In this document: piece after piece, positions 51,001 to 57,000 of the stretch
Layout of the letters: every line of letters begins with the position of its first letter
How positions within the stretch are numbered: the first letter of the stretch is position 1
Origin: Plasmodiophora brassicae
Taxonomy: Eukaryota
DNA: 64,000 nucleotides
Direction of reading: 5' to 3'
NCBI GenBank assembly: GCA_036867785.1
Contig: CP145420.1
Location: 992,001-1,056,000, forward strand
Program-made: the position numbers

Positions 51001-54000
51001 GTCTCCCGGTACGGGCGAGGGCAGCGACGATGCTGAGTGGGGGCGACCCGTCATCGCGCGCATTGCTTGACCTGGACGTCAACAGACGGGACGCGCACGA
51101 TCACAACGCTTCCTACAACGATGACGTGATCAGATCGCGAGCAGACCGCATGATATGGTATTGAATCCGCATACGTACGTGCGCCCACATACCTGACTTC
51201 GCACGACTGCCAATCACCAGCTAGCTTCCAAGCCCCAAATCAGGTTCAAGGGACTCTCCGGTTGGACGGCAGGTCAGGTTCGGAAACTGGGCAGTGTAGA
51301 CGGTGGACCGACATGGTATTCCCCGAGGCAGCCAGAGATACCTCCTGCGTACCAAAAATGTCATCGATGAAAGGCAGCCCAAAGTTCGTATCAACAAGTC
51401 CGTACGGCATGGCATCGGGAACTGCGGGGACGAGGAGGGTCACTTGAACTATAAATAGTTTATAGTATGAAAAGTGCGGCTTGCTTGTCGGAGTCCCGGA
51501 GCTGCGTGGGCACCGGACCCAGGTCCGGAATCATTCTGAATTTGCGCGAGACATTGGCGACGATGGCTGGCCGCTGGCTTGTCGGCTCGGTCGCGCTCTG
51601 CCTTGTTGTCGTTGCTGCAGGCGTTGGGGGCGGCAAGAAGACGCAACTCTCGAAGCTGGAACAAGCAGCGAACCTTATCGACAAGTGGGCGACCAAGGTT
51701 GCTGAGGGGGTCGACAAGCACGTCCTGCGTCAGCACTTTTGCGATTCCATGTCTGATGATGAGTATTTCGAAAGCCTTGCACTAGCGACCGTTGTCCGTC
51801 ACACCAGCGCAATACCACCCTTCCGGGGATGGGCGCGCCTCGGTCGATTGATACACTCCGCCGTCCGCCTATTACTTGCCATCAACTACGTTATCGAAGA
51901 AGTACTGCAAACTCCAACGCGTGAAGACAAGGCAGAATTTGAAGCAAACTTCTACCAATCCGTGTGGGGCGTCTTTTCACGCGTCACCACGGAAATCATT
52001 ATCCCTGCTTCCGATTCAAGTGAAACAGCCGGTATAACTGCTGAACTTACCCTTTCCCGGGCAGGCACGTTGCGAACCATATCCCTTGTTTACCGGTCAC
52101 TGCTCGAGTCTCTCCAAACACAGTTGGCAACGAATGGCAACTCACTGTCGATGTTGTCATCGCTTTATCGGGAAGCCGGCAATAAGAAACTCGCCGTGCA
52201 ATGGTCCGGCGATTCACCATTGCCCTTCCACGAGCCGCAAACTAACGCCGATGGCGTCGTCACATTGAAAACTCTCTTCCGATGGGAGACCGTAATTCCC
52301 GGGCTCATATCTGTCATGGAGAAAGTGAGACGTGTTCTCTCGGAGGCATCTAAAGAAGCCGACCGAGCGGAGAAGCTTGCGACGCCCGAGCCGATCTGGC
52401 CGGACGTTGACGCCGTCGTGAAGGAGCTTGACGCTGTCGGCGAGAGATCATCGTCCCGATCGAAGAGGACGAAGACGCGACGTAAGAAGAAACGCGGCGC
52501 TCCGTCAACATCATCGGATCACGATAGCGGCCCGGCAAGCTCAGACCGTCCCTCGTTGGGGCATCCCGCCGTGTGCGACGGCCCCAGTTTGTCCCCTGCT
52601 TCGCTCTGCCAGCTTGACCATGTTGATTATCGTCAGCCTATTGGCGACCGGAATTTCGCGACGGAAATGGACATGTTCGTCCAGCGTATCGACGACGAGT
52701 TGGCCACTATGTCACCAGTTTTTGACACTTGCGTCGCGCTCTTAACAGAGAAAATCCAAGAGATCGACCCGTCGGCTACGCTCGCTGTTGTCGGGTCCGT
52801 TGGGAAGAGGATGAACTTGCCGCCGCCGAACAGCGACCTTGATATATTGACCACACTGAGGAGCGATCAAATGGAACAGCTTCTCCACAAACTCATTCAG
52901 GACGAGGCGACGTTCCGCACCAAGACCGATGTTCCCCGAACGAACGCCCGCGGCATGACGCTTTTTCGCGTGGAGTTTCTGTCGAATATTAGCGCGCCTG
53001 CAATGCCGATTGATATTGTTTCATCCTCCGGTAAGAGCAGGGGATCATGGCTTGACCTTTGCCATGTCCTAAGCCGGCCTGACTACTACCGAATCCGCGC
53101 CATGGTACTATACCTGAAAGCGTACCTTCGTGCTGTATCGTCAGCAATGGACCCGCTGCTGATGGTCAATGGCGTCGGCGGCATGTCTTCGTACCTGCTA
53201 CAGGTACTTGTAATCGCCCACGTTGACAACGCCCCAGAATCGTGTGCGGATGGAGACCTAAGGGAATGTATCGTTACATTCTTTAAGTTTTACGGAGAAT
53301 TTGACTTCAACGACGATTGCATCGACGTAACGAACAGCGACAACCGATTCCCGAAAAAGTGGTCTTTCTCTGAGCTCAAGTTCTATTACAGCAGCGTATG
53401 CGCCATCGACCCGCACGACTCCACGAACAACATCGGCGAGATGACCTATCGTATCAGCAAGGTTCGCGCTGTCTTCGCCAAAGCACATGCTGCTCTAACC
53501 GACCAGCATGGCGCGCCGCTTATGTCGTTGTTCCCAGCTGGCCATGCGTACGCGTTGTTCTGATAAAATGAGCGCACCGCGATATCGACTGTGACGACAA
53601 CAACGTAATACTGTTGCATCATTCTATGGTTATCGTCAAATTCCGTATGGAATTTGGTACCGAGATCTAACCTACACGGCTTTGATCCTGAGGGTGCGCG
53701 TCAGTAAAATTTGTGTGGTGTGAGGACTGTCCGGAATAAACCGAGAACCCCGCGACGGACTTCGCCAGTCCGTCAAAGCGTTCGTTGCATCAGCTTGCCT
53801 GATCGTGACATTTTGACGGACTACCTATCCCACCACCCTCCTGTCGATCCCGCCTCGGCATCTCCTGCAGAACGTCAAGGCCTCGGTGGTACCTGGTCGA
53901 AGTCCCAGAGTACGTGTCCCGCCGTGCTGTATGCCTCTCAGGCCACCGGTGTTCCCCTGACCGCTTGCTGTCTCTTCCCGTCCGTCCGTGCCGATCTCGC

Positions 54001-57000
54001 CTCGGCATCTCCCGCAGAACGTCAAGGCCTCGGTCGTACCTGGTCCAAGTCCCAGAGTGCGTGTCCCGCCGTGCTGTATGCCTCTCAGGCCACCGGTGTT
54101 CCCCTGACCGCTTGCTGTCTCTTCCCGTCCGTCCGTGCCGATCTCGCCTCGGCATCCCCCGCAGAACGTCAAGGCCTCGGTCGTACCTGGTCCAAGTCCC
54201 AGAGTGCGTGTCCCGCCGTGCTGTATGCCTCTCAGGCCACCGGTGTTCCCCTGACCGCTTGCTGTCTCTTCCCGTCCGTCCGTGCCGATCTCGCCTCGGC
54301 ATCCCCCGCAGAACGTCAAGGCCTCGGTCGTACCTGGTCCAAGTCCCAGAGTGCGTGTCCCGCCGTGCTGTATGCCTCTCAGGCCACCGGTGTTCCCCTG
54401 ACCGCTTGCTGTCTCTTCCCGCCCGTCCGTCCGTCCGTGCCGATCTCGCCTCGGCATCCCCCGCAGAACGTCAAGGCCTCGGTCGTACCTGGTCCAAGTC
54501 CCAGAGTGCGTGTCCCGCCGTGCTGTATGCCTCTCAGGCCACCGGTGTTCCCCTGACCGCTTGCTGTCTCTTCCCGCCCGTCCGTCCGTCCGTGCCGATC
54601 TCGCCTCGGCATCCCCCGCAAAACGTCAAGGCCTCGGTCGTACCTGGTCCAAGTCCCAGAGTGCGTGTCCCGCCGTGCTGTATGCCTCTCAGGCCACCGG
54701 TGTTCCCCTGACCGCTTGCTGTCTCTTCCCACCCGTCCGTCCGTCCGTGCCGATCTCGTCTCGGCATCCCCCGCAGAACGTCAAGGCCTTGGTCGTACCT
54801 GGTCCAAGTCCCAGAGTACGTGTCCCGCCGTGCTGTATGCCTCTCAGGCCACCGGTGTTCCCCTGACCACTTGCTGTCTCTTCCCGTCCGTCCGTGCCGA
54901 TCCCGCCTCGGCATCTCCTGCACAACGTCAAGGCCTCGGTCGCAGCTGGTCCAAGTTCCAGAGTGCGCGTGTCCCGCCGTGCTGTTTGCCTCCCAGGCCG
55001 CCGGTGTTTCCCTGACCGCTTGCTGTCTCTACCCGTCCGTCCGTCCGCCAATGTCGATCCCGCCTCGGCATCTCCTGCACAACGTCAAGGCCTCGGTTGC
55101 GACGTGCTGTCACTAACCAAACCTGTTCGTCCGTCTGCCCGCCCGCCCGTCTCTCCGTCCGTCTTCTAATCCGTCCGTCTGCCCGTTCGTCCGTCTGTCC
55201 GTCCGTCTGCCCGTTCGTCCGTCTGTCCGTCCGTCTGCCCGTTCGTCCGTCTGTCCGTCCGTCTGCCCGCCCGTCTGCCTGCTCATCGTTCGTCTGTCCG
55301 TCCGTCTGCCCGCCCGTCTGCCTGCTCATCCGCCTGTCCGTTCGTCTGCGACCCATCAGAGGCCATCCGTCTGCCCTTCTATCCCGGACCCGTCAGAGGC
55401 CCATCGCTAGAAGGGGACTATTATGTGAGGACTGTCCGGAATAAACCGAGAACCCCGCGACGGACTTCGCCAGTCCGTCAAAGCGTTCGTTGCATCAGCT
55501 TGCCTGATCGTGACATGTGGACAACGATGACGAACTGGCTGTCCTCGCCTGTTTAGGCAATGGCCAATGACGACGTCGACGAGTCCAAGTGGTATATGTT
55601 ATATGTCGACCGAGTGTACGGGTGTGGAATATGGACGACTCTGGTACGAATGCATGACGTGTAATTTCCTGTCATGACGAACGTCGTGATTGCGTCAGGC
55701 GGCAAGGTATGCCGAACGAATATAGATAGGCCTGTGCGAATCGAAGTGGCAACAGCCGCCCGATGTTTAGTTCACGTTCATCGCGCCCAATGTAAGCGCG
55801 TCACTGTCCGTCGAGTCCGATTCGGTGAGGGCACCCTGACCGAACTTATCCCTCGCAACAACTCGTCTTCGTCCTTTGGGGACGTTCGGCGACTTCTTGG
55901 AACGCGATGATGCTGGGTCGAATGGATACGGGGTGTACAAGTACTGGGGTTGGGCGAACGCGGCCGACGATGACGACAGCCCTGGCAGGAACAGATCCGG
56001 ATGCGGTGCGACGTTGCGTATATTGGGCAGAACGCTGGTGCTTGAGCCCAGTTGAACCATGGGCGATGGTGGCCGTTTCCAACAGCGCACTACAACGACC
56101 AAGATGATGAGGAACAGTAAGCATATCGCGGTAAACGCAATTGTCAGGAGACTGGAGAAAGCGAAAGACGACGGCTGCGCGTTCTGCCTCTCGTGATCCA
56201 GGGAGCGACTGACCTGGCGGCGCGCAGCTGTGGTGGATACACCCAGAGAAAACGTTGCCCGACCGCGAGATCGGTCAAGCGACGGTACCATGTCCGGGGA
56301 ACCGGCCAATGACGATCTTGAGTGTGCACTCAGCGTTCTCCGTCCTGGTGTGGACTCATGCGAACCCACGCTGCCGCCCTGACCGTGACCGGTCGAAGGT
56401 CGCCCCTTCGGCAACGTCGCTGTGGTCGCCGGCTTAGGCACGTTTTGAATCGGCGGTGTCGACGTCTTTGTTGTCGTCGGCCCAGGGATGCCGACAATGG
56501 CCTGTATCGCACTGTGCAGCAATGTGAAATTCATCGTGTCGCTATCCAGGCCGTCAATGGCGAATCCGCCCAGGGCCATGGATTTAACGTACGCCGCCTT
56601 GGCCACAATCGCAGCCCGATTTTCGTACGAGATCACAACGTGTCCGGTTGCATTGACCAGGAACGGCACTTGGCTGACCGCGTCCCAATGGTCCACCCAG
56701 GCGCCTTGGTTTACCTGCACGAGGGCCACGATGTCTCGGTAGCGATAGTGCCCACTGTCGTCCGTTGCCCCTGTCGCGTATCCTTGTCCGGTCGATGAGA
56801 ACACGCCCGGGTAGAACGACGTCCCTGAGACGGAACCCAGCAACTGCCAGGCGACACCATAGACAGGGACACCCAGCACCAGTTTGCAACGCGGTACTCC
56901 AAGGTCTAGCAGCTGGACAATGCTGGCGTCGATCGAAAACGGCGCATGCGAATCGATGTTGAAGTGCAACGGGTTCAAATGCGCTGGAACGGGCGACCAG

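Follow-up and report, generated by a model that had tools for sequence, protein, structure and literature searches.

[quoted passage not shown] Among the Tf1/sushi elements, self-priming is reported to be common, and in Tf1 it is said to require two further duplexes, giving a three-duplex 'pretzel' (PMC10085805). A survey of plant LTR elements predicted self-priming for 12% of those covered, including the Tcn1 and TAR lineages (PMC6317226). Among the non-autonomous elements, TRIMs are described as multi-copy elements whose mobilisation is presumed to occur in trans (PMC6934838), and a bivalve TRIM study proposes no mechanism in the passages considered. In the literature on self-priming and on non-autonomous LTR retrotransposons, judged mainly by titles and the beginnings of abstracts, no description of a self-priming TRIM was found.

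The window, i.e. the whole stretch of Plasmodiophora brassicae DNA that was analysed (64,000 nucleotides), holds at 53719-55515 a copy of an LTR element with a total length of 1797 bp. The segment is best explained as a copy from a TRIM-like family of LTR retrotransposons that is non-autonomous and multi-copy, in a eukaryotic host that is GC-rich and probably plant-associated. The best reading of this copy, which we regard as probable, is that of a non-autonomous LTR element using self-priming of the Tf1 type. Its features are as follows.

53714-53718, no strand: left TSD, TGTGG, the same as 55516-55520
53719-53810, plus strand: 5' LTR, 92 bp, TG..CA, 92/92 identical to 55424-55515
53735-53740, plus strand: AATAAA, a putative TATA-like box or alternatively a poly(A) signal, judged from the sequence only
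53754-53761, plus strand: U3 arm GACGGACT, for which an 8-bp hairpin with 53767-53774 is possible (loop TCGCC, 53762-53766)
53767-53777, plus strand: putative self-primer AGTCCGTCAAA, the proposed first 11 nt of the RNA and start of R
53811-53822, plus strand: spacer T53811 and putative PBS TTTGACGGACT (53812-53822), the LTR self-complement
53845-55097, plus strand: internal tandem array, 8.3 units of 147/155 bp, 95% matches
55128-55349, plus strand: CGTC-rich microsatellite-like tract with periods of 4, 16, 28 and 44
55409-55417, plus strand: purine tract AGAAGGGGA, candidate PPT, 9 nt, separated from the 3' LTR by CTATTA (6 nt)
55424-55515, plus strand: 3' LTR, 92 bp, 92/92 identical to the 5' LTR
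55516-55520, no strand: right TSD, TGTGG, the same as 53714-53718

The segment has the structure of an LTR retrotransposon, with TG..CA direct terminal repeats and a TSD within the range of 4-6 bp. The original observation of identical 92-bp LTRs agreed with the alignment at all 92 positions, and the TSD was likewise intact on both sides. The identity of the terminal repeats runs over 93 nt, and alternative boundaries, with a 93-bp LTR, a 4-bp TSD (GTGG) and a PBS abutting the LTR, would fit equally well. The description of the element as young found no support, as LTR identity over 92 bp simply bounds the divergence at approximately 3% or less. At the position of the PBS, the 11-nt self-complement is found 1 nt past the 5' LTR, and a tRNA-type TGG, noted earlier as missing, was indeed absent from the 20 nt following the LTR. 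AATAAA, noted earlier at about 30 nt before 53767, lies 32 nt upstream of this putative primer start. As for the PPT noted earlier, the candidate is a purine tract at 55409-55417 that is short (9 nt) and without contact to the 3' LTR, from which it is held apart by a 6-nt gap. Between the LTRs lie 1613 non-coding bases, chiefly the 147/155-bp array, the units of which are 83-100% alike, with units 4 and 5 identical and the greatest divergence in the edge units. The motif GGACT/AGTCC is found repeatedly: at the LTR start, in the U3 arm and the PBS, and in the PPT region.

The complementarity between the LTR stretch (53767-53777) and the putative PBS (53812-53822) proved exact over the 11 nt that had been proposed, beginning one base past the 5' LTR, and a twelfth pair is possible between G53778 and U53811. 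With chance matches defined as perfect complements of at least 11 nt starting 0-5 nt past the LTR, such a match was reached in 2 of 20,000 composition-preserving shuffles and by 141 of the 127,776 position-strands of the real window, the latter at eight distinct places including the present site. The chance probability for this pre-named site is about 1e-3 to 1e-4. Folding of 53767-53830 gave -23.7 kcal/mol compared to a shuffle mean of -11.7 (200 shuffles; z -4.55; none as low), and the primer/PBS pair probabilities were 0.87-1.0 across all contexts tried, including those that contain the U3 arm; in these models, the primer/PBS helix dominates the predicted RNA fold. The competing U3 hairpin put forward earlier (53754-53761 with 53767-53774) is real, reaching -11.4 kcal/mol by itself, and the models predict that it forms in the 3' LTR context, but beside the PBS on the same RNA it is weak, with a pair probability of at most 0.05. 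A self-complement that sits at the PBS position, is rare by chance and dominates the fold supports the self-priming reading. Both outer duplexes of the Tf1 'pretzel' were no better than shuffles, which speaks against this reading: of 1000 shuffles, 313 equalled the best candidate for the PBS-downstream/U5 duplex and 150 equalled the inner U5 stem-loop. As modelled, support is thus found for the central one of the three 'pretzel' duplexes only.

The element is without credible coding capacity: no domain stretch passed in its eight internal ORFs, and Rfam returned no match for the element at E up to 1. A scan of the window for RT or integrase, covering 10 ORFs and 75 of the 197 ORFs of at least 130 aa (approximately 110 mostly overlapping ORFs lie outside it), gave none, and the Tf1/sushi-type partner proposed earlier is not supported. 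A pattern search for further LTR copies in the window, allowing up to three mismatches, matched the two LTRs only; short-word blastn in the window with LTR+PBS, the PPT region and the array unit otherwise yielded only chance words of 10-15 nt, and tRNA genes were absent from the window. Exact patterns of the LTR-end/PBS junction and of the LTR centre had 0 matches each in metagenome contigs. A AATCCGTCAAA pair at 34211 (plus strand) and 34735 (minus strand), considered as a covarying second element, is unrelated and belongs to a large inverted duplication.

The family was followed in four public sequencing runs examined at the locus (X1, X2, X11 and X17), all of them as contigs only, without RNA starts or strands. 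X17 covers a neighbouring intron and therefore behaves as DNA, while X1 and X11 contain a spliced contig with the skipped intron uncovered and therefore behave as RNA. In all four runs, the LTR depth was many times that of the flanks, with a depth of 2032 for the LTR-end/PBS/internal contig of X17 compared to 192 for its flank (approximately 10.6-fold), and 23-58 times the flank in the corresponding bins of X2. The LTR-PBS junction is present in roughly ten or more copies. Loose ends showed the family in other surroundings, with two or more further 5' flanks and several further 3' continuations, and they also contained a variant LTR start and variant PPT regions; on the PPT side, the other copies at these ends carry AGAAGAGGA or ACAAGAGGA, then CTATT(A/C), then the LTR start, and the purine character of the PPT region is retained in the variants. 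One variant contig of X2 matched the LTR end and PBS through 53823 and diverged beyond. The element is hence a member of a multi-copy family at differing insertion flanks. As for the present locus, a contig over the 5' flank/LTR junction was found in two of the four runs (X1 and X2), only X1 had a loose end at the 3' LTR/flank junction, and the contigs of X11 and X17 end short of the LTR. Of the 24 listed runs, 20 had word shares of 0.71-0.87, and no run containing the sequence is on record as RNA; since the family is multi-copy, these shares are not locus-specific and cannot prove that this locus is filled.

That the interior is mostly tandem array could suggest a non-mobile tandem-repeat locus with fortuitous flanking direct repeats. 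This is extremely improbable given the TG..CA ends and the 5-bp duplication, and it is contradicted by the joining of the 92-bp repeat to other flanks and by the excess depth in all four runs.

Across the four runs, no variant at a share of at least 5% was reported in either the primer (53767-53777) or the PBS (53812-53822). With both invariant among the abundant copies, there is no support from covariation, which is neutral either way. As nothing thereby links the two sites, a plus-oriented element primed by a cellular RNA (a tRNA half or another small RNA) ending in ...AGUCCGUCAAA has to be weighed, with the LTR 11-mer due to chance or serving another role. Half-tRNA primers exist, with 1/2 tRNA-Met and 1/2 tRNA-Ile reported for approximately 2% of the elements in the plant survey (PMC6317226), and the missing outer duplexes would also fit. 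Nevertheless, we consider such priming quite unlikely, since an LTR copy at this position would occur by chance at about 1e-3 or less, the PBS lacks an initial TGG, and the AATAAA box places the likely start at the 11-mer. Moreover, searches of the element and its surroundings gave no tRNA-like match, though an 11-nt fragment is too short to score in them.

In the RNA-like runs, the depth of the PPT-LTR and LTR-PBS junctions was greater than that of the flanking gene by approximately 100-fold (X11) to more than 1000-fold (X1). The summed depth in X1 peaks over U5-PBS (53794-53837). This peak, together with the very stable fold and the recurring GGACT/AGTCC motif, could be taken to mean that the 56-nt hairpin has a structural or regulatory role in the RNA, for instance as a packaging, dimerisation or stability element or a small-RNA precursor, and is not a priming device. 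Depths are, however, means per contig summed over contigs, with breaks that follow the assembly graph, and are unfit for ranking parts of the RNA; across the LTR in the RNA-like runs they proved too coarse to place a start or poly(A) site. Such a role is very unlikely, as the 3' arm lies exactly at the usual PBS place of LTR elements and no alternative PBS candidate is present. In X1, a minus-strand spliced transcript with a GT..AG intron (53675-53624) spans the flank/LTR border.

The orientation was assigned from sequence features alone, from which we infer the plus orientation. The opposite strand beside the 5' LTR is likewise purine-rich, which speaks against it. In a minus-oriented LTR retrotransposon, 53811-53840 would be the PPT side, priming would take place next to 55423, and the hairpin 53767-53822 would serve otherwise, for example in 3'-end formation or packaging. 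The minus strand beside 53811 is purine-rich past the first 10 nt, as is the internal region on that strand (the plus strand has 35.5% purines), the block GGACTATT(A/C) adjoining the other LTR is retained in variant copies, and the spliced transcript of X1 resembles read-through from a minus 3' LTR. However, the would-be PPT side shows no purine richness in the 10 nt that adjoin the LTR, neither TGG nor a self-complement is found beside the corresponding 5' LTR, and a TATA-like/AATAAA motif is lacking on this strand, whereas on the plus strand AATAAA precedes the primer start by 32 nt. Finding the complement at the place of the PBS (1e-3 to 1e-4) would then stay an unexplained coincidence, and we regard the minus orientation as unlikely.

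If the self-priming reading is correct, the RNA would start near 53767 in the 5' LTR, approximately 30 nt past AATAAA, and its first 11 nt would pair back onto the PBS (53812-53822) just beyond the LTR. RNase H of an RT that an autonomous element provides in trans would cut after nucleotide 11, leaving a 3'-OH that would prime minus-strand synthesis as in S. pombe Tf1, and the plus strand would be primed by the purine tract 55409-55417. The PBS of every new copy would be re-copied from the primer, which may explain why the exact complementarity of the two is kept. The 147/155-bp array and the CGTC tract would be non-coding cargo, expanded within the element. We infer the mobilisation in trans, as well as the identity of the partner.

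A further, rather unlikely possibility is that of a minimal self-primer (92-bp LTR, 48-nt U3 and 11-nt helix) without accessory duplexes, in a lineage without described ones, possibly plasmodiophorid, abundantly transcribed and perhaps mobile. If so, the central duplex alone would suffice for self-priming, and the partner could come from a self-priming lineage outside Tf1/sushi and TAR.

Predictions of self-priming exist for many elements already, and the present family adds a member, not a new element type, leaving the general understanding of how LTR elements work unchanged. Should the self-priming reading be true, the family would offer a compact natural test of the cis needs for a self-primed start of reverse transcription (11 bp and a 33-nt loop), and predicted self-priming would extend to a non-autonomous element, probably in a protist plant pathogen. 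Part of the structural variation near genes could stem from a mini-element of this kind, which is transcribed, multi-copy and equipped with an expandable internal array, and the family could provide an insertion-polymorphism marker between isolates.

Compared to Tf1, the likeness lies foremost in the 11-nt stretch of the element's own LTR that is complementary to the PBS past the 5' LTR, the reported Tf1 primer also being 11 nt (PMC7175516). As in Tf1/Tf2 and Tf1/sushi elements, there is no tRNA-type PBS and the LTRs are TG..CA. The TSD here is 5 bp, and Tf1 also makes a 5-bp target duplication; the Tf1 LTR measures several hundred bp, in contrast to the 92 bp found here. Of the three 'pretzel' duplexes known from Tf1, the models support only the central one here. 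Unlike Tf1/sushi elements, the element has no gag, pol or chromodomain, so that the likeness comes from LTR/PBS sequence and not from RT-RH-IN phylogeny, and its host appears to be a protist rather than a fungus, a vertebrate or a non-seed plant. For Tcn1-clade chromoviruses and TAR-lineage Ty1/copia elements, self-priming was similarly predicted from LTR/PBS complementarity alone (PMC6317226); these are autonomous and classified by RT, RH and INT domains, none of which is present here.

The short LTRs, non-coding interior, PBS-like and PPT-like sites and multi-copy nature are shared with TRIMs as described (PMC6934838). The lack of coding capacity, the short LTRs (92 bp) and the small size are all typical of TRIMs, although the 1797 bp owe much to the array (1253 bp), and the element would be approximately 550 bp without it. 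Classical plant TRIMs have a tRNA-Met-type PBS, whereas the present element has no TGG-type, tRNA-complementary one. Tandem repeats reportedly also occur in the untranslated regions of LTR elements, namely large plant Ty3/gypsy elements, in a study of satellite seeds. The present element resembles such retrotransposon-borne repeats in carrying a tandem array of approximately 150-bp units within an LTR element, and differs in that the array forms the bulk of a tiny non-autonomous element and not part of a large plant Ty3/gypsy one.

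The element at 53719-55515 is bounded by two long terminal repeats (LTRs) and a target duplication, as the original prediction had proposed; the LTRs are identical at 92 of 92 positions by direct reading, repeat search and script, and TGTGG stands on both outer sides. Identity continues for one further base, to 93 nt, and the sequence is equally compatible with LTRs of 93 bp and a target duplication of 4 bp. [quoted passage not shown] The polypurine tract (PPT) was borne out in part: a purine run is present, but CTATTA separates it from the 3' LTR. A G-U pair of 53778 with 53811 could extend the primer:PBS helix to 12.

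Features of the element and of its neighbours
51467-53563, plus strand: Cid1-family poly(A) polymerase-like ORF with PAP_assoc
53714-53718 and 55516-55520, no strand: target duplication TGTGG
53719-53810, plus strand: 5' LTR, TG..CA
53735-53740, plus strand: AATAAA
53754-53761, plus strand: U3 arm GACGGACT, 8-bp hairpin with 53767-53774
53767-53777, plus strand: putative self-primer AGTCCGTCAAA inside the 5' LTR, RNA form AGUCCGUCAAA
53812-53822, plus strand: putative PBS TTTGACGGACT, exact complement of the primer
53845-55097, plus strand: tandem array, 8.3 units of 147/155 bp, 95% matches
55128-55349, plus strand: CGTC-rich tract downstream of the tandem array
55409-55417, plus strand: purine run AGAAGGGGA
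55424-55515, plus strand: 3' LTR, TG..CA
55767-59292, minus strand: three consecutive chitinase-like ORFs with GH18 matches

The 1613 nt between the LTRs are 35.5% purine on the plus strand. The array units are 83-100% alike, with units 4 and 5 identical and the edge units most diverged, and it is only because of these repeats that stop-to-stop ORFs occur in all interior frames. In a Pfam scan of eight internal ORFs no single matched stretch passed; DUF3188 and zf-CCCH_tandem nominally exceeded the whole-protein cut-off, solely via summed weak repeated matches. Rfam gave no match to the element at E up to 1, and the 64-kb window holds no tRNA genes. Reverse transcriptase (RT), integrase (IN), protease and gag domains were found neither among the 10 long ATG ORFs of the window nor among 75 of its 197 stop-to-stop ORFs of at least 130 aa, the rest being mostly overlapping frames.

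With the Cid1-like ORF on its left and the minus-strand GH18 ORFs on its right, the element lies in the short spacer of convergent genes, about 250 nt past the stop of the chitinase-like gene; the three GH18 ORFs may be one intron-bearing gene or a tandem pair. Elsewhere in the window, a segmental duplication (32300-35250 and 41300-43350, about 8.9 kb apart) is 83-97% alike in many blocks, and its first copy includes a large inverted duplication, approximately 34140-34330 against 34560-34800, of which the misleading AATCCGTCAAA pair is a product. Direct repeats at 38043-38659 and 43378-44423 are 96% and 100% alike at spacings of 5335 and 5764, with no retroelement domains in the ORFs scanned there. 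A GC content of about 60%, the length of the ORFs, an intron of 52 nt and co-occurrence with 'plant metagenome' runs are consistent with a plasmodiophorid, for example Plasmodiophora brassicae. In a preprint, assembled contigs of this species were filtered at GC 57 to 61%, taken as species-consistent, and transposable elements, with Gypsy and Copia LTR elements dominant, account for 11-14% of each genome (bioRxiv 10.64898/2026.10.14.759018).

The primer:PBS complement was evaluated against chance by shuffling the LTR and the following 30 nt separately and scoring perfect complements of at least 11 nt starting 0-5 nt past the LTR. Such complements arose in 2 of 20,000 shuffles and at 141 of 127,776 position-strands of the real window, the latter representing eight distinct inverted repeats, the primer/PBS among them, and these counts put the chance at about 1e-3 to 1e-4 for a pre-named site, the LTR end. 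The predicted fold of RNA 53767-53830 reached -23.7 kcal/mol, compared to a shuffle mean of -11.7 (sd 2.6, z -4.55, n = 200), and none of the 200 shuffles folded as well. Primer and PBS paired with a probability of 0.87-1.0 whether the RNA was taken from 53767, 53750, 53740 or 53719. The U3 hairpin put forward as a competitor does have its 8-bp pairing, but its probability falls to 0.05 or less once the PBS shares the RNA; around the 3' LTR, which has no PBS beside it, the hairpin is predicted to form. A non-autonomous element with Tf1-like self-priming is, with reasonable though not high confidence, the best reading, which lends the original interpretation partial support. Such priming would involve a putative partner element, a putative RNA cleavage and a candidate RNA start site. 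Were the RNA to start at 53767, strand transfer would call for an R considerably longer than 11 nt, and a poly(A) site would then be expected towards the end of the LTR.

Further copies of the family were sought in public sequencing runs, of which 24 were listed; 20, from eight studies, contain 0.71-0.87 of the sampled words. Since other copies supply the same words, these shares are uninformative on the occupancy of this locus. Two element pattern scans of metagenome contigs gave no match. Four runs, all of them in contig form (X1, X2, X11 and X17), were aligned to 53200-53850, and LTR depth was far above flank depth in each of them. X17 covers the neighbouring intron and therefore behaves as DNA; in this run the contig of the flank stands at a depth of 192 and a contig joining LTR end, PBS and interior (53782-53850 plus 19 nt beyond) at 2032, corresponding to approximately 10.6 copies of the LTR-PBS junction. 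X2, likewise unspliced, reached 23-58x in the bins of this junction contig. Loose contig ends revealed at least two other upstream flanks, a variant LTR start, and several other continuations past the LTR end, two of them alike. Within the window, the LTR, PPT region and array unit have no second copy.

No variants of at least 5% share were listed within primer or PBS in the four runs; the pair is thus invariant, leaving no covariation to count. One X2 contig agrees through LTR end, spacer and PBS to 53823 and then differs, so that the sequence is constant to the PBS end and diverges directly after it. Behind 53810, loose ends of X1 and X11 carry two mutually similar sequences with a CGAACCCA core in place of the PBS. 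These may represent a target that is itself repeated, an internal region of a second type with a different PBS, or flanking DNA within another repeat.

The element had been called young, and its LTRs are indeed identical, but zero differences over 92 bp set an upper bound of about 3% on their divergence. The roughly ten identical LTR-PBS junctions and the identity of two array units are compatible with recent amplification and, to the same degree, with gene conversion. The 5' flank/LTR junction of this locus was assembled in two of the four runs (X1 and X2), and X1 alone showed its 3' LTR/flank junction, in the form of a loose end.

In X1 and X11, a contig skips 53624-53675 (52 nt, bounded by CT..AC in plus-strand and GT..AG in minus-strand reading), the skipped part being without cover, and both runs thus behave as RNA, whatever their label. 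Both internal element junctions stand at depths of about 1820-2058 in X11, against 20 for the flank, and reach thousands in X1, against 63. This indicates transcription of the family or, at the least, its abundance in RNA preparations. Contigs carry no strand, start or end information on RNA, and either orientation yields both internal junctions, which makes the reads compatible with both. We consider it probable that the element is plus-oriented, given the self-complement at the PBS position, the AATAAA upstream of the primer start, and the pure purine run near the 3' LTR, whose purine character is retained in the loose-end variants AGAAGAGGA and ACAAGAGGA; after either variant the sequence continues with CTATTA or CTATTC. 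An element on the minus strand would match the purine richness of that strand, a stretch rich in G and A at a distance of 10 nt from the border at 53811, and a minus-strand spliced transcript spanning the flank/LTR border in X1. Beyond the intron this spliced contig occupies 53676-53746, running 28 nt into the 5' LTR. The transcript also overlaps the plus-strand Cid1-like gene at its 3' end, and may represent antisense read-out of the LTR, a long 3' UTR belonging to the chitinase gene, or element read-through. Separately, 53389-53457 (69 nt, PAP_assoc region of the Cid1-like ORF) is matched with four other letters by far deeper contigs in X1, X2 and X11 (3157 vs 63 in X1); evidently a similar, highly represented stretch exists elsewhere in the genome.

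Membership in Tf1/sushi is defined by RT/IN phylogeny, and likeness to Tf1 is considered here at the level of the priming structure. The central duplex, primer:PBS, is of equal length to that of Tf1 and strong, whereas the other two duplexes of the three-duplex 'pretzel' RNA structure are unsupported, being equalled by 313 and 150 of 1000 shuffles. The element would thus appear to work like Tf1 in the one feature readable from sequence, with one structural hallmark apparently missing. [quoted passage not shown] The pretzel is required for Tf1 self-priming, and self-priming is common among Tf1/sushi elements (PMC10085805). Such priming is also proposed for Tcn1 (PMC7175516) and predicted in 12% of surveyed plant LTR elements, the copia TAR lineage included (PMC6317226). 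For Tj1, too, self-priming has been proposed (PMC4600332). Non-autonomous miniature LTR elements (TRIMs) are described from plants and bivalves (PMC6934838), and tandem arrays within LTR elements are also known (PMC7004042). A search of a limited set of literature, judged mainly by titles and abstract beginnings, turned up no description of a self-priming TRIM-like element. The element is real and neatly built; it joins known kinds, and its proposed mechanism is not new.
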